From a virus (lineage: Duplodnaviria > Heunggongvirae > Uroviricota > Caudoviricetes), in IMG/VR virus record IMGVR_UViG_2698536647_000003, positions 1 through 8,752 of that record: a DNA stretch of 8,752 bases; one strand, 5' to 3'. Within the stretch, counting starts at the first letter, position 1; every line of letters starts with the position of its first letter. The position numbers and the translations under genes are program-made. Shown one piece after another: positions 1 through 8,752 of this stretch. The notes beneath the pieces are model-generated. The model was given only the letters and a program-made list of their open reading frames with translations, was not told where the DNA came from and made no database searches.

Positions 1-804
1 CTGCGCCCACGGCACTGATGATTTTGGTGTTTGAGGGTCAGTGGTTGTTAGAAAACGGCTGAATACCGCATTACCGTAAGTAATCCACAGCTGCGCAATT
101 CGATGCCCGGTGTAGGAACTCTGAAACCCACAGCCATACGAAGGAGCCCACAGAGTATTGCCATCAGCATCACTGATGAAGGATGAACTGGCATCTGTGG
201 GCTTATTTTGGAGAACAGCACCAACCCCAAAAGCTCCCACCTGCATAACATTCCCTGCCGCAGTTCCGACATCCTTTGTCGCACTACTTCCTAAACCGAG
301 GTTTGTGCGAACGTCTGCTGCGTTCGTTGCCCCGGTCCCGCCCTGCGCAATAGAAAGCGCAGTAGTGAGTCCTTTCAGCTCCGTGATATCGCTGTTTGCC
401 CCCTTTCTGGCAAGTGCACCAATGCCCGGAATATTCACGGAAGCTCCGTTGATGGTAACGGTGATAGTTTGGTTTGCTGAGGTGGTGGCGAACGTCTCCC
501 ATGCGCCGATATTCTCGTCATACTCTTTGATGAGCTGAGACATGGCCTGCGCCAGGCCGTCGACTGAGATATTGTCTGACACAAGGATTCCATACTTCTG
601 GCCGCTCAGCGCCGGGGAAGCAACTGGCGTAACCGTCAAAGACGTGGCGCTGTTCACGGATGAAATCTGGAACAGCTGCACCGGGTTAGACATCACGATA
701 ATTGTCTGCCCAGCGCGAACCTGGCTGGCGGGAGCTGTCCAGTTTGTGCCGGAGCCGGTTGCGGTATTTCCGTTAATAGAGATAGTTCCTGTGCTATAAA
801 TCAT
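1..804 (-). CDS. Tail fibre protein, N-terminal 268 codons (partial; 3' end lies beyond the window start)
   Basis: Hand translation of the minus strand from ATG 804..802 is open for 268 codons to position 1 (MIYSTGTISINGNTATGSGTNW...), which explains why this frame is absent from the ATG-to-stop ORF track. TAGGAG sits 5 nt upstream of the ATG (811..816 on the minus strand). The translation contains LSIAQGGTGATNAADVRTNLGLG, a motif I recognise as recurrent in phage tail fibres. Position is immediately distal to J. Confidence 0.7.
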   Translation of the reverse strand, partial: MIYSTGTISINGNTATGSGTNWTAPASQVRAGQTIIVMSNPVQLFQISSVNSATSLTVTPVASPALSGQKYGILVSDNISVDGLAQAMSQLIKEYDENIGAWETFATTSANQTITVTINGASVNIPGIGALARKGANSDITELKGLTTALSIAQGGTGATNAADVRTNLGLGSSATKDVGTAAGNVMQVGAFGVGAVLQNKPTDASSSFISDADGNTLWAPSYGCGFQSSYTGHRIAQLWITYGNAVFSRFLTTTDPQTPKSSVPWAQ

Positions 805-881
805 AACAACTCCTAAATTTAGACAACATGAAGCCCGGAGAGGTATATAACCCTCACCAGAAATAATTTCTGAATTGGTTT

Positions 882-1228
882 TTAATACATGTTGGGCAAC
901 GCCAGTGTTGGCATAGCTATAGTTGTATCAAATGCCATTGACCACCCACCCAAATAATAATTGCCGACTACTTTATTCCTTTCTGCTCTGACATTCCCAC
1001 CTGTCATTACAATTCCTTTATACCTAATATTTCCGTAACCACCAACGTGTCGACAGTTAGCCCCGGTATAAACAATCTGGCAAAATTCATCACCAATATT
1101 CAGGTTCGCATTGGCGATATTTATTGTCCCATCAAAAATGAATGGCTTCGTGCAAGTAAGAAGACGTTTGCGTTGACGATTGGTTTATTCAATCCATCAA
1201 CCAAAATACCATGTAAACGAATTGCCAT
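882..1228 (-). pseudogene. Possible frameshifted remnant of a side-tail-fibre (Stf-like) N-terminus
   Basis: Minus-strand ATG at 1228 gives MAIRLHGILVDGLNKPIVNANVFLLARSHSFLMGQ then a stop at 1121..1123. Its first ~27 residues resemble the lambda Stf N-terminus as I recall it (MAVKISGVLKDGTGKPVQNCTIQLKARR). A second frame is open from 1130 to 882 (82 codons). AT-rich, no convincing intact gene. Confidence 0.25.
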
Positions 1229-1309
1229 AACATTTCCCACTTTATTTTACTTACTCAACACAACAAGTATATTAAAATTGAACCTTGTCAACAACACAAA
1301 GGAGTCCCA

Positions 1310-1543
1310 ATGAAACTCGCTCTAATTATGCTGCCATTATGTCTGTCCCTCACTGCATGTGGTAATGGTTTAAATACCGGTAAACCAAATTCCGGTGTCA
1401 TTCCAAAACCTTTGGATCGAGATGGTAACGGTTCTTTAATTTATGATACCGAAAACCTTCCAATGACGGGGCAGTGGTGTCACGAGATTGATCACGAATA
1501 CCGACGAATCGGTAGCCCTTCTAACTGTGTTATTGACTACTAA
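1310..1543 (+). CDS. Small predicted outer-membrane lipoprotein (77 aa), moron convergent with J
   Basis: ORF-track ORF with AAGGAG at 1299..1304, 5 nt before the ATG. N-terminus MKLALIMLPLCLSLTAC has a charged n-region, hydrophobic core and lipobox L-T-A-C (Gly at +2). AT-rich relative to flanking tail genes. A perfect hairpin terminator begins 2 nt after the stop. Confidence 0.6.
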   Translation: MKLALIMLPLCLSLTACGNGLNTGKPNSGVIPKPLDRDGNGSLIYDTENLPMTGQWCHEIDHEYRRIGSPSNCVIDY

Positions 1544-1544
1544 A

Positions 1545-1572
1545 TATTAACCCCTCAAAAGAGGGGTTAATA
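1545..1572. terminator. Bidirectional intrinsic terminator between the convergent lipoprotein gene and J
   Basis: Perfect 12-bp inverted repeat TATTAACCCCTC / GAGGGGTTAATA with a 4-nt AAAA loop. It is followed by TTTT (1573..1576) on the plus strand and flanked by A/T on the minus strand. It lies between the plus-strand stop (1541..1543) and the J stop (1575..1577). Confidence 0.65.
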
Positions 1573-1574
1573 TT

Positions 1575-4500
1575 TTAACCTGTGAATGAACCAGATCCGT
1601 GTGATACTATGACAGTAGGCGAATAAATGGACGCGCCCCTGTTATTTTGAGCGGACACTTTAATACGCACTGTTACGTTTGGACCTGTTACAACCGCAGA
1701 ATGCATGATAAGTCTCTCCATGTCTTGTACGGATGAACCACTCTCATTGCCGTTAATATTGATTAGTCCTGCACCATTACCTTTAACGTTTGCTATAACA
1801 CAGACGTGTCTTGCGTGCCCAGAACTGGATGAATCCGTATAAGTTATTACCTTTTCTAAAAGGCCGTCACTAGACCGACTAACGTCAGTTCCGGTGTGCA
1901 TATTTGCAATGTCCCCGATAAAACTTTGGGCTTCCACAGTCCCTTTGAATTTACCGCTTGTTGCTTGTATCTCACCAGTAAATCTACCGCCACTAGCATA
2001 TACTACACCTCTGACGGTCACATTGTTGAATTCAGCATCTCCAGCTTTATTCAACTTCCAACCAGCAGAACCAGCTGCATAGTTGTTGGACTGGATATAG
2101 TTACCGATTTTTGCGTTCTCAATGGTGCCGTCCTGGATGAAGCTGGCCCGGATGAATGTCTGTCCATTCTGGATCACAAACGGCAAAGCCACGCTATTTC
2201 CGGCTGCCGTGGTGACGGCGAAGCGATCAGCCAGGAAGATAACCTGCGACTGCATGCCGGATGGCGTATTCTCCACGCCGATACCCATCCCCGCGGCGTA
2301 ATACTGCCCGTTGCTGGAGACACCAACTTTGATGTTGTACATCGCGCTGAGGTCGCCGTTTACGTTCGCTATAGCCTGAGCGTTGGTTGTGATGGCTGAG
2401 GTATGCCCGTTCACCGTCGCCGTGATGCTGTTTACCTGCGTGGCCATAGCCTGCTGGTAATCGGAGAACGTCTGGTTCAGGCTGTTGATGGATGCCTTGT
2501 TGCCGTTAACGTCCGTCTGCAGGCTCAGCAGCGAGCGCGCCGTTGCCTCCCTGTCGTTGACAATCACCTCATCAATACGGTCCAGATTCGCGCTGTTGCC
2601 GGCGACCGATGCAGAAAGGGTTTTACGCGTGGCCACCTGAGCGAGGTTGGCCTGGATTATCGCAATTGCAGAGTTCTTCACCCCGCCCGTCATGCCGTCC
2701 ATAGAAACGCTGATGTTGTCGATTCGCTGGCCCAGGGCGGTATCAGCCGTCGCAACGGTCTGCTCAAGCTGACTGAGTGAAGACGAAACATTCCCGACCG
2801 TGCTGGAAAGCTCATTAACGCTGGTCTGAACCTTCCCTACGTCCTGGGCATTTTTGGCGATATCTTTCGCTTGCTGCTCCAGTTCGTCGTTAGCCTGTTT
2901 GATATCGTTAGCCATGCCAGCAATTTTTTCATTGCTGTCCACAGCGTTCTCGATCAGGTCTTTGAACGTATCGGAGCCTTTCATGTCCTCCAGGATCACA
3001 TCTGTGATGTCGGAAACATCGATGCTGGCCTGTCCTCGCACCCATTCTGTGTACCCTGATTCGTTGCCGCTGCGGTCCACCAGCTGAGCGCGGTACCAGA
3101 AAATCTGCCCAGCCTTGAGGCCCATCTGCTGATATTTGCGCTGCGGATAAGGCACATCGGCCAGCAGCATCGCATCGTCCTCGGTTCCGGTCAGGCTGTA
3201 CTGAATTTCCGTCTTCAGCGTGTCGTCGGTATTCGCCGGGAATCCCCAGTTCAGCTCGATGCCGAAAACCACATTTTCAGAAGCGATGAAGCCAACCGGC
3301 TTCGGTGGATTGCCCACTTTACCCGTCAGCGTTTTCTCTTCTGAATAGCCCCATCCGGATGAAATTTCAGCGGCGTTGATGGCACGCACGCGCACCAGGT
3401 ATCGTCCCGCATAAATGCCCGGAACATCGAACGATGTGGTGGAGCTGCGCGGCACGTTAACCCAGTTCCCGTCGTTGCGGCGCCATTGTGCTTCATAGGC
3501 GATAGCGTTCTGCGCCTGGTACCAGCTCACGCGCATTGTTTCGACGCTGATATTTTGCTGAACCACGGAAAACGAGCTGATCACGATATTCGCAGGCGGC
3601 GACTGGTTGCCCGGCGGGATCACGCTCACCGGCCGTTGGTCAATGATGGCTCCGGTATCGATACGGGCATATTTATCCGGGTCGTGCCATGCGCCGGTAA
3701 TCGAGAAAGTGCCATCATTGTTATCGGAAACGCTGACAACTCGATACTGCTGCGCGTAGAGCTCGTCAGATTCAACCACCCAAACAGCTTCGGCCTGTGG
3801 CGTCTCACTGTATGCCGTGGTGACTGTGACTGATTCCCCGTTCACGGCCTGAATGGTCCTGCTCTGCGACGCTCCGGAGGGAAGGTTGAGAATAAGGCGA
3901 TCACCTGGTGCTGCATCAGCTACGCGGTCAAGTTTGATAACGCGACCGTTAACGGCGCTGATGCGGCCGCCCATAACCTTTCCGGAAAGCAGCTCGTCTG
4001 CCACGGCGATGATGTAGCCAGGCTGCGGAATGTTTCCGTCCAGCCCGACATCAAACGAAACAACGCGATCCTTGTTGTTGGTGAGAATGCCCCAGCGCCC
4101 CTTTCGGTTCGCTTCTGACTGCCTGGTGCAGCCGATGGCTGTCATTTCCAGCTGATTGAAGCCGTATCGCGCTACCAGCGCCTGCTCAAATACCGGCTCC
4201 ATCGCGTCGGCATAAGCGTTACCCGGGTCTGACCATGAAACCAGCGCTGTGGTGTAGCGGGTTTTCGTGGTGCTGCTTGAATAGGTGAAGCGACCGCCAA
4301 CAACGTTGGCGCGCGTGTAGCTGTAATCAACATCTCGGGGCATATCGGCCAGAGCAACGATCTGATCGCCTCCCCAGTACGTCATGCCACGGAATATGGC
4401 CGCAAAATCACGCAGGACTGTATAAGCGTCGTTTCGGTCCTGGATGTACACGTTGCAGGTATAACGCGGTTCGGTACCGTTGCCCCCTTTGCCGTCTGGT

Positions 4501-5465
4501 ACCATCTGATCACAATACTGGGCAACCTGATAAAGCGTCCATTTATCAATATTCGCAGCGGTCAAACGGTGCCCGAGGCCGAACCGGTCAGAAACAACCA
4601 GATCGTAAAAAATCCACGCAGGGTTATCCGTCCATGCCCACTTAAACGCACCGGTCCATGTACCGCTATAAGTGCGGGTTTCAGGGTCGTAGGTATCTGG
4701 AACGCGGATAACACGGCCGCGGGGCTCGCAGGAGATCTGCGGGATAGAGCCGTTAAACTGACTTGAATCGAATTCGATGTAGAGTAGCGCTGTGTTTGGA
4801 TATCGTAACTTGGCGTCAATCACCTCGGTGAAGCTCTGCAGCGTCATCGTGTCGCCGATCTTCGCGCTGTTGGCATCAGAGGTAATCTTACGCAGACGTA
4901 TTGTCCAGGTGCTGCCAGCTTGCGGTAAATCGATACGGTGGCTGCGCTCATAACCAGACGTCGTTTTGCCGGTCACGCTGGTATTGAGTACCGTCTGCCA
5001 TGTGCCGCCGTCCGTCTGCAGGTCAATCGCATAATTGACCGAGTAACCCACCAGATCTCCGTCGTCTTCCTGTTTGAAAAGCGAGGGCCATTTCAGACGC
5101 AGACGAACTGCTGAAAGCTGCGTATTGGTAAACGTGCGCGTCCAGGCTGTAGCGCTTGATACCTCAGTTCCCACGCTGATTTCGTTTTCGGTACCGGGAA
5201 TACCCTGAATATATTTTTGAGCCTGCGTCCCCGCGCGAAACTCCCACGTCACGCCGCTGAAGTTTTGGGAACCGTCGGCATTCTCCAGCGCCGTTCCGTC
5301 CAGGTAGATATCTTTGCCGGTTAGCTGCCCTGCGAACTCCCCTTCGCCAAGCGCAACGAGGATTTTTGCCTTCGCTACAGATTGCAGATCATCAGGCTGT
5401 TCGGTAGGAGTTCGTGAACTGGATTTGCCGCCTTTGCGCCCCTTTAATACTTTCTCTGTAGCCAT
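1575..5465 (-). CDS. J: Host specificity protein J (central tail fibre / tail tip), 1296 aa
   Basis: Single 3891-nt ORF. The N-terminal region (KGGKSSSRTPTEQPDDLQS...) and the segment YYAAGMGIGVENTPSGMQSQVIFLADRFAV... resemble lambda gpJ as I recall it. It sits after M-L-K-I in lambda order. Start ATG 5465 has only a weak GGA-type Shine-Dalgarno. Confidence 0.93.
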   Translation of the reverse strand: MATEKVLKGRKGGKSSSRTPTEQPDDLQSVAKAKILVALGEGEFAGQLTGKDIYLDGTALENADGSQNFSGVTWEFRAGTQAQKYIQGIPGTENEISVGTEVSSATAWTRTFTNTQLSAVRLRLKWPSLFKQEDDGDLVGYSVNYAIDLQTDGGTWQTVLNTSVTGKTTSGYERSHRIDLPQAGSTWTIRLRKITSDANSAKIGDTMTLQSFTEVIDAKLRYPNTALLYIEFDSSQFNGSIPQISCEPRGRVIRVPDTYDPETRTYSGTWTGAFKWAWTDNPAWIFYDLVVSDRFGLGHRLTAANIDKWTLYQVAQYCDQMVPDGKGGNGTEPRYTCNVYIQDRNDAYTVLRDFAAIFRGMTYWGGDQIVALADMPRDVDYSYTRANVVGGRFTYSSSTTKTRYTTALVSWSDPGNAYADAMEPVFEQALVARYGFNQLEMTAIGCTRQSEANRKGRWGILTNNKDRVVSFDVGLDGNIPQPGYIIAVADELLSGKVMGGRISAVNGRVIKLDRVADAAPGDRLILNLPSGASQSRTIQAVNGESVTVTTAYSETPQAEAVWVVESDELYAQQYRVVSVSDNNDGTFSITGAWHDPDKYARIDTGAIIDQRPVSVIPPGNQSPPANIVISSFSVVQQNISVETMRVSWYQAQNAIAYEAQWRRNDGNWVNVPRSSTTSFDVPGIYAGRYLVRVRAINAAEISSGWGYSEEKTLTGKVGNPPKPVGFIASENVVFGIELNWGFPANTDDTLKTEIQYSLTGTEDDAMLLADVPYPQRKYQQMGLKAGQIFWYRAQLVDRSGNESGYTEWVRGQASIDVSDITDVILEDMKGSDTFKDLIENAVDSNEKIAGMANDIKQANDELEQQAKDIAKNAQDVGKVQTSVNELSSTVGNVSSSLSQLEQTVATADTALGQRIDNISVSMDGMTGGVKNSAIAIIQANLAQVATRKTLSASVAGNSANLDRIDEVIVNDREATARSLLSLQTDVNGNKASINSLNQTFSDYQQAMATQVNSITATVNGHTSAITTNAQAIANVNGDLSAMYNIKVGVSSNGQYYAAGMGIGVENTPSGMQSQVIFLADRFAVTTAAGNSVALPFVIQNGQTFIRASFIQDGTIENAKIGNYIQSNNYAAGSAGWKLNKAGDAEFNNVTVRGVVYASGGRFTGEIQATSGKFKGTVEAQSFIGDIANMHTGTDVSRSSDGLLEKVITYTDSSSSGHARHVCVIANVKGNGAGLININGNESGSSVQDMERLIMHSAVVTGPNVTVRIKVSAQNNRGASIYSPTVIVSHGSGSFTG

Positions 5466-5476
5466 ATCGCGTCCAT

Positions 5477-5499
5477 AAAAAAAGCCACCCGAAGGCGGC
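5477..5499 (-). terminator. Intrinsic terminator on the minus strand, ending 11 nt upstream of the J start codon
   Basis: Minus-strand RNA reads GCCGCC-UUCG-GGUGGC (6-bp stem with one G.U, UUCG tetraloop) followed by seven U (plus 5477..5483 is A7). Confidence 0.6.
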
Positions 5500-5631
5500 T
5501 ACTGTTTAAATATCAGGCTGTTGGTAACAGGAATCCCTGGTTAATGTGTAAGCTCAGCCCGCCAGTGGTAGGCCTCTGGCGTTAACTGACCGAGGGATGG
5601 CTGAAGTACCCGGTTAAAATGGAGTAATAAG

Positions 5632-5847
5632 ATGATCGAAGAAAAGTTCGTGGATTTTAGATTTACTCTTGACGAAAATATTCCTAGAGAAATCGCTTTA
5701 GAAATTGTGGCTCTAAGACAAGTTACAATGGTATTAACAGCAGCATTGCCAGTAGATACAAGGCAACAAGTTATTGAAATCCTATCAAAGACAAACTCAC
5801 CACAAATTCAAGACATCGTCAAAAATATGAAGCTTATTGACGCCTAA
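5632..5847 (+). CDS. Hypothetical 71-aa protein in the I-J insertion (plus strand)
   Basis: ORF-track ORF with GGAG at 5621..5624, 7 nt before the ATG. AT-rich. Its 3' end overlaps the 3' end of the minus-strand 49-aa ORF by about 50 nt, so at most one of the two may be real. No recognisable motif. Confidence 0.35.
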   Translation: MIEEKFVDFRFTLDENIPREIALEIVALRQVTMVLTAALPVDTRQQVIEILSKTNSPQIQDIVKNMKLIDA

Positions 5848-5946
5848 TGTCATTGAAGCATCGTACTCTACGGTCTCATGCGGGACCGTTTCATTAACTT
5901 CAGATGTTTCATTTTCAGTTTTTTCTACTCGTGACTCAAAAGACAT
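5797..5946 (-). CDS. Hypothetical small acidic protein (49 aa) immediately downstream of I
   Basis: Hand translation: MSFESRVEKTENETSEVNETVPHETVEYDASMTLGVNKLHIFDDVLNLW (11 Asp/Glu against 3 Arg/Lys). AAGGAG at 5958..5953 sits 6 nt before ATG 5946 and 8 nt after the I stop. Below the ORF track's apparent length cut-off. Confidence 0.35.
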   Translation of the reverse strand: MSFESRVEKTENETSEVNETVPHETVEYDASMTLGVNKLHIFDDVLNLW

Positions 5947-5966
5947 ACACATCTCCTTAACTTAGC

Positions 5967-6554
5967 TTACTGCTGATCTTCGACATATATCCCGGCAGAA
6001 ATAATCGCTCCGCCGATTCGACGCTTACCATAAAGCAGAGGCACTGGGTAGCCTTGCGCTGCAGTGTTGGTTACCCCGCCAAACGCATACGATGCACGGT
6101 TATCTGCGCTTTGTTTGCTGGCCAGCCCTGTAGCCTGAGGGGATAACATCTGAACTACCCCCCCCAGCGTTATGGACGCACCAGCAGCAAACATCATATT
6201 GCTGGCAGCTATACTCAGACCTGGCATCCAGATCGATGCAATCACTAATACTGCGCCCAGGATAGTTTGAATCAAACCGGCTTTTTTACTCCCGATGATT
6301 ACCGGAACAATGCGAATAACCTCGCCGGTAATCGGGAAGCCAAGGTCATCCACACCGATGTTTTTTTTACCCTTAAACACGGAGTATGTGAGCCCACGGC
6401 GTTGGCTGGAAATCATAAACTGCTCAAATCCAGGAATGGTTTTTGCGAGTGCAACGCCTGCTTCGCTTACGCGGGATATCAGACGGTAGTGAACTTTGCC
6501 AAACGTTTTTCCAAGAACACTGCCTAATTCAATTCGACTCATGACCTCTTGCAT
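5967..6554 (-). CDS. I: Tail assembly protein I (ubiquitin-like N-terminal domain, hydrophobic C-terminal region)
   Basis: Resembles lambda gpI as I recall it (e.g. ...GYPVPLLYG... near the C-terminus, Gly/Ala-rich hydrophobic stretch). I trimmed the ORF-track start (6641) to ATG 6554, which follows a GGGGGGA run by 4 nt and lies downstream of the 6570..6591 terminator. An in-frame ATG at 6542 is an alternative. Confidence 0.85.
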   Translation of the reverse strand: MQEVMSRIELGSVLGKTFGKVHYRLISRVSEAGVALAKTIPGFEQFMISSQRRGLTYSVFKGKKNIGVDDLGFPITGEVIRIVPVIIGSKKAGLIQTILGAVLVIASIWMPGLSIAASNMMFAAGASITLGGVVQMLSPQATGLASKQSADNRASYAFGGVTNTAAQGYPVPLLYGKRRIGGAIISAGIYVEDQQ

Positions 6555-6569
6555 ATAATCCCCCCACGT

Positions 6570-6591
6570 AAAAAAACCGCCGAAGCGGTTT
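6570..6591 (-). terminator. Intrinsic terminator on the minus strand after the K-I lipoprotein gene
   Basis: Minus-strand RNA reads AAACCGC-UUCG-GCGGUUU followed by a U-run (plus 6570..6576 is A7). Lies between the lipoprotein stop (6616) and the I start (6554). Confidence 0.65.
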
Positions 6592-6615
6592 AATTTGGTT
6601 GATTTATTTAGGTGT

Positions 6616-7011
6616 TTATTTATTAAAATGTTTCTTTTCAATGCTCATTGCTTGATTAAAGAAATTTGTAGCATTAATTACCGCCCTTTCACAATCCTTC
6701 TGCCCATAATGTCGATGGCATTGGAATTCAGCATTTATTGCCGTATCGCCGGACTGTTTAACCTTAGATGCCCGTCCTGCAAGTTGCCTTGTATCAATAG
6801 GTGGGAATGTTGTTATAAATGTATCGTTAGCTGATTCTACTCTCATTTTTGTTGCAAACTCCAAATGCTGAGGAACCTTCGACCAAAGATAACTACATTC
6901 AGCCTCTGATGAACATGTGACAGGCTTAGTATCTAATACCGGCATTGGCCTATTATCAGCACATCCAGCGGTGGCAAGTACCACAAGACCAGAGAACAAT
7001 ATTTTTTTCAC
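6616..7011 (-). CDS. Cys-rich predicted outer-membrane lipoprotein (131 aa), moron between K and I
   Basis: ORF-track ORF starting at GTG 7011..7009 (no in-frame ATG nearby), with GGGAAG 7 nt upstream. N-terminus MKKILFSGLVVLATAGC fits a lipoprotein signal with Cys+1 and Ala at +2. The mature part has 4 further Cys. AT-rich; own terminator downstream. No homolog recognised. Confidence 0.6.
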   Translation of the reverse strand: MKKILFSGLVVLATAGCADNRPMPVLDTKPVTCSSEAECSYLWSKVPQHLEFATKMRVESANDTFITTFPPIDTRQLAGRASKVKQSGDTAINAEFQCHRHYGQKDCERAVINATNFFNQAMSIEKKHFNK

Positions 7012-7098
7012 AATTAAGCTTCCCTTTCATTGAAAATATCAGAGGAATACTAACATGAAGTTATGGAGTGAGTAATTAACAACTTAACCACTATAGAA

Positions 7099-7809
7099 TT
7101 AACAAAATACTTTGTACCGAAGTACTTTCATTGTTCTTTCCTGCCAGTAGCCACCATATGGCACGCGCTGGCTAAGATGACCGTACAAATGATGCAGTAG
7201 CATATTGCCCTCAAGCAGGATCCCCGCGTGATTCCACTTATCGGCCTGGACCTGCATGATGATGAGGTCCCCTTCCTGAGGCGGGCCATCAAACTCCCTG
7301 AATCCGCACTCGTACCAGCACTCCTGATAGAAATTGTCCGGGTAGTCGTTTTCCCACCAGGGATAATCCACCCGGTAATCGTGGAGCTCGATACCGTGGG
7401 TCTGCCGGAAATAGCTCATTACCAGACCCCAGCAATCGAAGTGGCCAAGCACGAACGGACGCTCCAGCAATGGCAGCTCCCCGCGTGGCTGAATGGTACG
7501 TAAATCCCCCTCTGGCCAGCTCACAATATGCCAGGGCAGCAGCGTTGCATCACACTGTGCCTTATCCAGCTCGCTGGCCTGCGTCGTCGCATCAGGATGG
7601 CTGTGAACAATGGCCACCACCGTCCCCCAGTCTTCTGCCGCTGCGTAATCTTCGGGGGACAGGTGAAAATGTTCAGTCGGCTCTGCTGCGAGATTACGAC
7701 AGGGAAAATAGCGCTCAACCCGGCTTTTCTGTGCCACCACGCCGCAGCACTCGCGCGGATATTCCGCTGCAGCGTGTGCCATGATGGCATCAATGGTTTT
7801 CTGGCGCAT
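7099..7809 (-). CDS. K: Tail assembly / tail tip protein K (JAMM/MPN metalloprotease-like N-domain plus NlpC/P60-like C-domain)
   Basis: JAMM motif visible: E in PRECCGVV, then HSHPDATTQASELD, which fits H-x-H-x7-S-x2-D. NlpC/P60-like Cys in GHFDCWGLV and His in WNHAGILL. Start set at ATG 7809 (protein MRQKTIDAIM...) with AGGAG 5 nt upstream; the L stop TGA (7813..7811) is 1 nt before it. The ORF-track start at 7845 is probably an upstream non-ATG artefact. Confidence 0.9.
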   Translation of the reverse strand: MRQKTIDAIMAHAAAEYPRECCGVVAQKSRVERYFPCRNLAAEPTEHFHLSPEDYAAAEDWGTVVAIVHSHPDATTQASELDKAQCDATLLPWHIVSWPEGDLRTIQPRGELPLLERPFVLGHFDCWGLVMSYFRQTHGIELHDYRVDYPWWENDYPDNFYQECWYECGFREFDGPPQEGDLIIMQVQADKWNHAGILLEGNMLLHHLYGHLSQRVPYGGYWQERTMKVLRYKVFC

Positions 7810-7810
7810 A

Positions 7811-8566
7811 TCAACTCCTGATAAGAGATGTACCGGGGAAACCACCGAACGGCAGCTCGTTGCTGTATCCGTGCCGGAGCTTGCAGGCCGTCAGCGTGCC
7901 GTTGCATACATCCAGCGAGGGATCGTCAACCGGATTATTGTTTTTGTCGAAATAGCGCGTTCCGGCATAGTCGCAGCCGTCGCCGGTACGATATTTATTC
8001 CGGATGCACCAGGTACACAGGGAATGAAGCTGTCGCGTCGGGATCATTTGCCCCTGCAGGTCCATCGGGCTGGATAGTGTGAACTCAACAACTTCATTGG
8101 TTTCACTGCTCTTTGCATCGATGTAGAAAACCTTCAGCTTCTCCTGGGTCGGATCGGCTGTCGGATTGCCTCCGGTGAAGTTTCTCGCATCAAGATACTT
8201 ACCAAGGGTGTCATGTATCGTCACCTTCGCCTGCAGCATATCGTCGTAAGCCAGGCAAAGCGCGGTGATCGAACTGTCGAGGTTAGCAACCGAAAGTTTT
8301 GGCTGGGCACTACTTCCCGAGGTTGAAGCTTCGATCCCATCAATCTGGCATGGCCACGCTTTATACTCCTCACCCTGCCACCAGATAGATTTTGCTGGCA
8401 GTTTATTTTCATCACCGCCAGCAGCCTCAATCTCTTCCGGGGTATGCGCGATGTTATGTGCGTGGAAGCGGAGTACATCTGACATACCGAACGCTGTGCC
8501 ATCGACAGAAAAAAGCCGGACTTCATTGCCCGGCTCGAGTTTTTGATAATCAGCATTAAGACTCAT
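7811..8566 (-). CDS. L: Tail tip protein L (251 aa)
   Basis: Position between M and K. C-terminal Cys cluster (LCTWCIRNKYRTGDGCDYAG ... CNGTLTACKLRHG) resembles the conserved Cys pattern of lambda gpL as I recall it. The ATG at 8566..8564 overlaps the M stop in an ATGA arrangement. Confidence 0.9.
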   Translation of the reverse strand: MSLNADYQKLEPGNEVRLFSVDGTAFGMSDVLRFHAHNIAHTPEEIEAAGGDENKLPAKSIWWQGEEYKAWPCQIDGIEASTSGSSAQPKLSVANLDSSITALCLAYDDMLQAKVTIHDTLGKYLDARNFTGGNPTADPTQEKLKVFYIDAKSSETNEVVEFTLSSPMDLQGQMIPTRQLHSLCTWCIRNKYRTGDGCDYAGTRYFDKNNNPVDDPSLDVCNGTLTACKLRHGYSNELPFGGFPGTSLIRS

Positions 8567-8752
8567 GGTGCAAATGCCTGTTCAAACGTTGCGGTTACGG
8601 TTATCACTTTTACGTTTTTAACCACCTTTTTGAGCGTGTCAGCCTCGACACGCCACAGCGCGGTATCGCCGAAAGGCGGTGTGAAAATAAACGACTTCAC
8701 TTTATGCCGCCGAAGGAAAGCGTGAATTTCATTCGCTGTAGTCGGATCCCCT
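8563..8752 (-). CDS. M: Tail tip protein M, C-terminal 62 codons (partial; 5' end lies beyond the window end)
   Basis: Hand translation of the minus strand from 8751 gives ...GDPTTANEIHAFLRRHKVKSFIFTPPFGDTALWRVEADTLKKVVKNVKVITVTATFEQAFAP then a stop at 8565..8563. This resembles the C-terminal half of lambda gpM as I recall it (...WKSFLWTPPYEW...). The stop overlaps the L start. Confidence 0.8.
   Translation of the reverse strand, partial: GDPTTANEIHAFLRRHKVKSFIFTPPFGDTALWRVEADTLKKVVKNVKVITVTATFEQAFAP

Follow-up and report, generated by a model that had tools for sequence, protein, structure and literature searches.

A tail fibre stub joined out of frame to a DUF6453 gene remnant: the probable scar of a receptor-cassette exchange in a lambdoid prophage of E. 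coli

Gene order at the locus

The stretch of DNA analysed here (the window: 8,752 nucleotides, positions 1 to 8,752 of IMG/VR record IMGVR_UViG_2698536647_000003) contains the tail-tip end of a lambdoid E. coli prophage, with its genes read on the minus strand: L (7811-8566), K (7099-7845), I (5967-6641) and J (1575-5465). By nucleotide comparison over positions 700-1650, prophages of E. coli SZQ1 and QL57EC are 99.4% identical to the window and E. coli Nissle 1917 is 98.8% identical. At its low-numbered end the window holds the 5' part (268 codons, 1..804, minus strand) of a side tail fibre gene of the HK97-Stf type, which runs off the window. This gene is 85.6% identical to HK97 stf at the nucleotide level, matches the tail fibre profile phrog_1591 (E 1e-75) and corresponds to a 422-aa CDS in the near-identical prophage of SZQ1; the N-terminus that it encodes resembles those of the fibres that follow DUF6453 genes in the phages SPN3UB and 29485. 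An earlier reading made from the sequence alone (the sequence-only reading) had the gene starting independently at 804 with its own TAGGAG, and this is what the sequence contains: an ATG at 804 preceded by TAGGAG. The ribosome-binding site lies in an intergenic spacer (805..881, minus strand) that belongs to an old DUF6453-fibre module. The spacer is common to the window and HK97 from window position 885 downward, and to the window and the CX21 prophage from 900 downward.

Between J and this spacer lie, in order from J, a terminator hairpin, a small lipoprotein gene on the plus strand, a divergent intergenic region and the segment 882..1228 that is our main subject. GC content falls from 0.55 in most of J to 0.44 at the J end (1575..2141) and 0.398 in 882..1228.

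A fibre stub and a DUF6453 remnant

A minus-strand ORF of 35 codons begins at an ATG at 1228, reads MAIRLHGILVDGLNKPIVNANVFLLARSHSFLMGQ and stops at a TAA (1123..1121), just as the sequence-only reading had described. Its first part (1145..1228, minus strand; the start codon and 27 further codons) is a stub of a lateral tail fibre gene of the lambda-Stf/phage 9g gp70 type. Residues 1-28 are identical to those of the phage 9g tail fibre protein gp70 at 28/28 positions, with the annotated gp70 start of 9g aligning with the ATG at 1228. An ungapped comparison with lambda Stf (orf-401) gives 12 identities over residues 1-28, so that the sequence-only reading, which put the match at about half the positions, was roughly right. 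Four PHROG tail-fibre families match the stub with profile positions 1-30 on residues 1-30 (E 9e-6 to 9e-4), and the Stf-type N-terminal signature MA-x4-G-x-L-x-DG-xx-KP is present at the protein start. The Pfam profile PF08400 (phage_tail_N) remained below threshold against the stub, at 13.8 bits for a cut-off of 26.6 and over positions 1-30 of 134 only. The similarity of the stub to Stf-type fibres is far beyond chance. In Nissle 1917 the stub carries the substitution G7D.

At the nucleotide level, the alignment of 9g and the window is near-identical through ...CACGAAGC (also given as ...CTTGCACGAAGC) and then collapses, and in the same comparison no identity to gp70 is seen past residue 28 of the 35-codon ORF. 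A continuous ORF with a fibre shaft and receptor-binding tip was not found, the frame stopping after 35 codons. An alignment that is near-perfect and then collapses points to truncation of a genuine Stf-type N-terminus behind codon 28, and on this homology we regard the first 28 codons as a genuine remnant of the N-terminus of a side tail fibre of the lambda-Stf/9g-gp70 type. A consensus scan of the minus strand gave no convincing promoter for the stub.

A second minus-strand frame is open for 100 codons (1184..885) and ends at a stop at 884..882; the sequence-only reading had noted such a frame continuing to 882 but gave its length as 82 codons. From 1145 to 882 (minus strand) it consists of the 3' remnant of a DUF6453 gene: of ~320 codons, the last 87 and the stop are present, and a start codon is lacking. 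The remnant matches Pfam PF20051 (DUF6453) at positions 227-289 of 291 (E 4.4e-20; 72.6 bits, cut-off 25) and phrog_1265 at positions 245-332 of 332 (E 9e-24). We compared it with the ~320-aa DUF6453 proteins of Salmonella phages SPN3UB (gp38) and 29485 and of coliphage DTL, to which it is 46-52% identical over their residues ~232-319; with the LptD-type members cited in the literature the identity is ~37-55%, the remnant being truncated relative to these. Full-length DUF6453 proteins have ~310-325 aa and a start codon of their own, and intact members cover PF20051 positions 1-290, which the remnant fails to do. Like DUF6453 in SPN3UB, it is situated between J and the side fibre gene, but the lipoprotein gene and the fibre stub now intervene between it and J.

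We searched for an intact parent allele of this remnant in several collections. In a word-indexed search of 5.8 billion proteins only a truncated 85-aa form and a 63-aa fragment were recovered. When 1.84 billion representatives were searched exhaustively with HMMER, the top full-length matches reached 49% identity at most; one strong-looking HMMER match (P0004) was rejected as a junk repetitive translation. A scan of one genome per species did not find the allele, and phage records contained no nucleotide-level match to 886..1145. Across the collections searched, the closest full-length relative of this DUF6453 allele is 49-52% identical.

The two remnants meet at 1141..1148 (minus strand), with their frames one base out of register. 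Nucleotide homology to 9g stops abruptly at 1145-1141, whilst homology to DUF6453 begins at the proline codon 1145..1143, the P of PFIFDG, leaving the two frames with an overlap of one base, at 1145. The 35-codon ORF is closed by seven out-of-frame codons and its TAA (HSFLMGQ; 1121..1144, minus strand), which are DUF6453-derived DNA read in the wrong frame: the other frame of the same nucleotides encodes PFIFDGTIN and aligns with DUF6453. The junction sequence is identical and free of indels in all six of the E. coli copies aligned. Positions 1141-1148 are an out-of-frame join of two different genes and not a frameshift inside one.

Further searches covered the surroundings of the junction. 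Rfam gave nothing credible for 600..1800, and none of the four ORFs tested had a match in NCBIfam. Opposite the stub, the plus strand contains an antisense ORF of 88 aa (1047..1313) with no PHROG match. In strain EC23HZZ201, a 165-aa 'hypothetical protein' is a single frame spanning this ORF and the lipoprotein ORF; we rejected it as a gene, and the frame is probably the product of a 1-nt insertion that is visible in the alignment.

The adjoining J tip and lipoprotein gene

Window positions 2141..1142 make up one co-linear block of 1000 nt that is 89.2% identical to the virulent phage 9g (Nonagvirus). In 9g the block runs from the J 3' end through a terminator hairpin, gp69 (the convergent gene) and an intergenic region, and takes in precisely 84 nt of gp70, counted from its start. 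Seuratvirus and other Queuovirinae possess the same block at 85-89% identity, diverging somewhat earlier in the fibre gene.

The J 3' end (1575..2141, minus strand) is common, by nucleotide homology, to the window, 9g and HK97. Positions 1578-1979 encode ~134 C-terminal J residues, a tip domain that is missing from J proteins paired with DUF6453. HK97 J is 88.6% identical to the window at the nucleotide level over 2700..1574, and other lambdoid phages match the window J only down to ~2045. HK97 uses LamB as its receptor. Infection by phage KurtStettler also depends on LamB, and KurtStettler is 77% identical in nucleotide sequence to the tip domain of the window J. From the literature and by analogy, we infer a receptor role for the J tip in the window prophage.

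J and the lipoprotein gene converge on a perfect 15-nt inverted repeat (1542..1575), a bidirectional terminator that is annotated in 9g as the 'H1 loop'. The lipoprotein gene (1310..1543, plus strand; 77 aa) is a homologue of 9g gp69 and matches phrog_12984 'lipoprotein' (E 1e-56). The protein reads MKLALIMLPLCLSLTAC, with a signal peptide and a lipobox, LTAC, that supplies the lipobox cysteine, and has no match at E<=1 to Cor (NCBIfam), PF24052 or other Pfam or NCBIfam families. Its gene adjoins the J tip and, by analogy with Cor, Llp and Rtp45, the lipoprotein is a candidate receptor-masking (superinfection exclusion) partner of that tip. The divergent intergenic region (1229..1309, unstranded) is co-linear with 9g at ~89% identity and would have been imported along with the rest of the cassette. 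On consensus evidence only (a 9/12 match), plus-strand positions 1246-1273 form a promoter-like site for the lipoprotein gene, placed just within the imported edge.

Two receptor architectures in one slot

In the phages examined, an intact DUF6453 gene is a full gene of ~320 codons that always adjoins gpJ. SPN3UB and 29485 have the order J, DUF6453, fibre, and DUF6453 likewise has J on one side and the lateral fibre gene on the other in the Dhillonvirus Oekolampad and the Nonagvirus ChristophMerian. In the Drexlerviridae phages JeanPiccard and DTL it also adjoins J, the order in JeanPiccard being J, then DUF6453, then recombination genes. Some DUF6453 phages pair the gene with a small ORF, and that of JeanPiccard matches Pfam PF24052 (Phage_lipoprotein). 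Even within a single genus the slot is variably filled: 9g has the lipoprotein gene where ChristophMerian has DUF6453, and the J protein of 9g is ~138 residues longer than that of ChristophMerian. The J proteins of SPN3UB and JeanPiccard are alignable to the window J only as far as its residue 1162, that is, they are ~134 residues shorter. As both J length and slot occupancy differ between the DUF6453 phages and the lipoprotein phages, one slot is occupied by two alternative architectures: either J is short and DUF6453 is a separate protein, or J is long, has its own tip domain and is accompanied by the lipoprotein.

In the one paper found to name DUF6453, the name serves as an annotation label. 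An ORF of 930-966 bp was linked by Maffei et al. to LptD-dependent infection as a 'bona fide RBP' (PMC8594841), and the same ORF has been modelled as a two-beta-sandwich protein and putative LptD binder, in which the residues conserved across the family lie mostly at the base (which holds the N-terminus) and on one side, and are linked to tail assembly (PMC13035648). By analogy with these published cases, DUF6453 may be assigned a putative receptor-binding role in the window lineage.

Proposed history of the locus

We propose, with a probability of about 0.85, that 882..1228 is a non-coding recombination scar made up of two unrelated gene remnants and left behind by the swap of a receptor cassette. 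We infer the direction and order of events as follows. The ancestral prophage would have carried J, then DUF6453 as a separate receptor-binding protein, then the side tail fibre gene. The incoming cassette, of the Nonagvirus/Seuratvirus type, would have comprised the C-terminal receptor-binding domain of J, the terminator, the lipoprotein gene and the far 5' end of a fibre gene. Its left crossover may be placed in conserved J sequence at ~2045-2141, since other lambdoid phages match the window down to ~2045, 9g matches it from 2141 and the GC content drops here from 0.55 to 0.44. At the right end, an illegitimate or micro-homology join at ~1141-1148 would have attached the donor fibre gene, broken off at codon 28, to the resident DUF6453 gene at about codon 232, so that the incoming DNA ended 84 nt into the donor gene and DUF6453 was destroyed. 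Receptor recognition would thereby have shifted from the stand-alone protein to the J tip, making DUF6453 redundant, whilst the resident HK97-Stf-type fibre gene at 804 would have been left untouched with its own ribosome-binding site. The recipient state is pieced together from distant relatives, the searches having turned up no close intact counterpart of this DUF6453 allele.

The product of the 28-codon stub is expected to be at most a nonsense-ended peptide of 35 residues, and neither remnant would be expected to have a protein function. We also considered whether DUF6453 is required for an HK97-type fibre and rejected this, the same type of fibre being found after J-cor loci, or directly after J, with no DUF6453 gene present; that it occurs after such J-cor loci indicates that loss of DUF6453 need not disable the fibre.

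Related loci have lost more of DUF6453 than the window has. In five CX strains a larger deletion (1516..901) leaves the last ~96 nt before the fibre gene and the last six DUF6453 codons. In HK97, homology resumes exactly at the DUF6453 stop codon, which is all that is left of the gene. At the level of sequence, SPN3UB (intact), the window, CX21 and HK97 can be read in this order as a decay series.

Set against this history, the sequence-only reading was correct in part. It had described a frameshifted Stf-like remnant, and the first 28 codons are indeed of Stf type, but 1145..882 is DUF6453, with 72.6 bits to PF20051. The profile search that it had proposed bears out the same division, residues 1-30 matching the PHROG fibre families and the second frame matching DUF6453. 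It had allowed that the region might turn out to be part of an intact unrelated gene; there is an unrelated gene, DUF6453, but this is itself not intact. The idea of a scar of module exchange survives, although the module exchanged was most likely not a fibre but the J tip and lipoprotein gene, replacing DUF6453; the fibre 5' end would have formed the margin of the imported DNA and so have come with it. The AT-richness, which had been considered atypical of a decayed fibre gene, fits a low-GC origin of both pieces, the imported J end being at 0.44 against 0.55 for the remainder of J.

Variation among copies and alternative readings

The stretch comprising the stub and the junction is found in 37 of 5,426 complete E. 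coli genomes, Nissle 1917 among them, with a 9g-type cassette in 34 and a JenK1-type cassette in three. In no E. coli genome of this complete set does the stub run into an intact fibre gene. Among the copies compared, the island 1228..805 is the most conserved segment of the locus, being 97-100% identical in all of them. Its flanks vary widely: identity is 43-99% over the J-tip and lipoprotein cassette on the left, and on the right the fibre gene starts at 78-91% and falls to about 45% further on. No fewer than four variants of the cassette adjoin this one junction, in versions of about 99%, 93% and 84% and in the JenK1/HdK1/PD328 type, the last of these in strains ET245, CUPF06 and 21AR0133. 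Similarity between ET245 and the window picks up again precisely at the stub ATG, and homology to phage PD328 (94.5%) again ends at ~1142. The receptor of the JenK1/HdK1/PD328 type could not be assigned by the authors who described these phages, who also noted that conservation of the lateral fibre gene among them is confined to its far 5' end (PMC8594841).

The identical, indel-free junction in six copies points to one founding event. The most economical reading of the variation is that the junction formed once and that homologous recombination exchanged cassettes afterwards, the 84-nt stub serving as the arm on the right. This raises the question of whether the scar has been kept as a homology hinge, 1228..805 allowing cassettes to be swapped repeatedly, including with virulent Queuovirinae. 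Such a role would supplement the scar reading, and we consider the chances to be evenly balanced. In its favour are the contrast between the island and both of its flanks, the several cassettes on a single junction with the edges seen in ET245 and PD328, and lateral fibre genes whose conservation is limited to the 5' extremity. On the other side, clonal descent of the island with imported flanks predicts equal conservation with no selection involved, and an arm of 84 nt is short. An arm of this length is nevertheless enough for RecA or Red-type recombination. A point against the scar reading itself is that selection on some element, instead of clonal descent, could account for the conservation of the island. 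More tentatively, and with the odds somewhat against it, the island may be a crossover site or host-range 'docking sequence' at which temperate prophages, that of Nissle 1917 included, repeatedly exchange DNA with virulent, DNA-hypermodified Queuovirinae.

A functional small protein, whether encoded by the remnant or by a fusion of stub and remnant through ribosomal frameshifting, and acting as a decoy or a tail accessory, is in our view highly unlikely. In its favour, PGAP assigns an 85-aa CDS to the remnant in Nissle 1917 and other genomes, the frame stays open across 100 codons and all aligned copies are free of indels; an internal ATG at 1007 has AAGGA upstream. Yet neither the remnant nor the annotated CDS start has a canonical start codon or a Shine-Dalgarno sequence, and in other genomes RefSeq/PGAP calls the same sequence a pseudogene ('DUF6453 family protein; incomplete; missing N-terminus'). 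Substitutions among the remnant copies comprise seven non-synonymous and four synonymous changes, which are too few for a real dN/dS test; they strike residues that are conserved in intact homologues, C->Y and R->I being examples. The region is moreover deleted in the CX strains and absent from HK97, which is fully viable.

Least probable of all, with hardly any chance of being right, is a single Stf-like fibre gene that decayed by frameshift and was displaced by fibre-module exchange, both frames then being parts of one former gene: the first 28 codons are truly Stf-like, a second open frame directly follows, and lambda, whose side tail fibres were removed by a mutation (PMC8594841), offers a known frameshift case in the stf gene of lambda PaPa, but homology to intact 9g-type fibre genes halts at 1145-1141 with no continuation in a shifted frame, and the second frame, aligned locally with lambda Stf and 9g gp70, scores inside the range of shuffled controls, whereas its DUF6453 match has an E value of 4e-20.

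Implications and comparison with known systems

Reading 882..1228 as a scar corrects its annotation, since neither a fibre gene with a frameshift nor the small 'DUF6453 family protein' of the RefSeq entry for Nissle 1917 lies here. The locus is ordinary phage mosaicism in a tidy example, its DUF6453 half having already been flagged by RefSeq as a pseudogene, and the scar leaves current concepts of phage mosaicism unchanged. What it does provide is a natural example of one receptor architecture replacing another in one slot, DUF6453 on the one hand and the J tip with its lipoprotein on the other. Common cassettes tie the HK97-like/Nissle 1917 prophage family to the virulent Nonagvirus and Seuratvirus groups, pointing to gene flow between them. 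For the prediction of host range from genomes, the functional receptor determinant here would be the J tip and not the DUF6453 match. Should the docking sequence prove to be real, a fragment of a pseudogene would persist as a crossover site for host range.

The window has its upstream context in common with phage 9g: the J end, the terminator, the convergent lipoprotein gene and the intergenic region. In 9g, however, gp70 continues for >1200 codons, whereas the window stub keeps 28 codons and has neither shaft nor tip. The stf gene of lambda PaPa (orf-401/orf-314) encodes the same N-terminal fibre type and is likewise no longer intact. There a single base is missing and the gene is otherwise complete, whereas the window stub breaks off behind codon 28, with foreign DNA attached.

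The intact DUF6453 proteins of Rtp, AugustePiccard, JeanPiccard and Oekolampad, regarded as LptD-type receptor-binding proteins of small siphoviruses, are homologous to the remnant over its C-terminal 87 residues. Lacking the first ~230 residues and a start codon, the remnant cannot form the two-beta-sandwich protein that has been modelled for the family (PMC13035648).

HK97 has the same J C-terminal domain, the same type of stf and the same pre-stf spacer as the window, but an unrelated spacer of 125 nt, with an 18-nt inverted repeat, replaces the window's lipoprotein gene, stub and DUF6453 remnant. Reading the window as a scar accounts for the start of the HK97 pre-stf spacer at a DUF6453 stop codon. 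In the phages of PMC8594841, finally, alternative receptor cassettes occupy one slot flanked by conserved J sequence and a conserved fibre 5' end, as in the window. Those cassettes are intact alleles in virulent phages, whereas the window represents a temperate lambdoid prophage in which the two-gene scar is still visible.

Alternative modules between J and the fibre gene

Within the genus Nonagvirus, comparison of ChristophMerian with 9g reveals alternative receptor architectures in one slot: ChristophMerian has a short J together with DUF6453, whereas 9g has a long J together with the lipoprotein, the lateral fibre gene being the next gene in both. A further variant is seen in the E. coli ET245, CUPF06 and 21AR0133 prophages. 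These have the stub (the first 28 codons of a lateral fibre gene), the remnant (the last 87 codons of the DUF6453 gene) and the fibre gene in common with the window but carry an alternative cassette of J tip and small ORF, located at 634-1418 in ET245 and corresponding to window positions 1912-1229. The small ORF encodes a 92-aa protein matching phrog_2243, and the cassette as a whole is 94.5% identical to that of phage PD328 and 87-90% identical to those of JenK1, HdK1 and HdSG1, a Nonagvirus cassette type without an assigned receptor (PMC8594841).

The E. coli CX21 locus is a deletion derivative. Loss of window positions 1516..901 (junction at ~5990-6010 in CX21) leaves the order J, its terminator, the 3'-terminal part of the lipoprotein gene fused to the final six DUF6453 codons, then the fibre gene, and this deletion is common to five CX strains. 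In phage HK97, J and stf are separated by a 125-nt spacer (1233-1358) that is unrelated to the window sequence and includes an inverted repeat of ~18 nt (GGAAGGTGCGAATAAGT ... ACTTATTCGCACCTTCC); past this spacer, homology to the window picks up again at the DUF6453 stop codon.

For E. coli EC23HZZ201, the RefSeq annotation has one 165-aa 'hypothetical protein' (1102-1599) extending over the lipoprotein ORF as well as the antisense ORF at window 1047-1313. Alignment identifies a 1-nt insertion in this copy that probably fuses the two frames, in which case the 165-aa CDS would be an annotation artefact.

Transcription and downstream genes

J and the lipoprotein gene, which are convergent, are separated by a perfect 15-nt inverted repeat (1542-1575; AAATATTAACCCCTC / GAGGGGTTAATATTT) that works as a bidirectional terminator. 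Late transcription can arrive at the fibre gene (start at 804) only by passing through this repeat. Past the window's left edge, related prophages carry tail-fibre-assembly or fibre-tip genes after the fibre gene and in the opposite orientation to it (L001 5331-6951, L002 4779-6169, CX21 7440-9542), with a 'recombinase family protein' gene also present there in SZQ1 and CX21. This combination suggests an invertible host-range segment similar to those of Gin, Cin and Pin.

Moron-like insertions in the tail operon

Two further ORFs lie between tail genes. Between K and I, a 131-aa ORF (6616-7011, minus strand; phrog_16082, function not assigned, E 8e-9) has a lipoprotein-like signal (MKKILFSGLVVLATAGC) and a GC content of 0.39 against ~0.54 in its neighbours, and looks like a moron placed into the operon. 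The I-J spacer (5466-5966, GC 0.41) is a second moron-like insertion: the lambda I-J gap is only ~60 nt and without an ORF, whereas that of the window is ~500 bp and contains, on the opposite (plus) strand, a 71-aa ORF (5632-5847; phrog_6806, function not assigned, E 1.6e-6).
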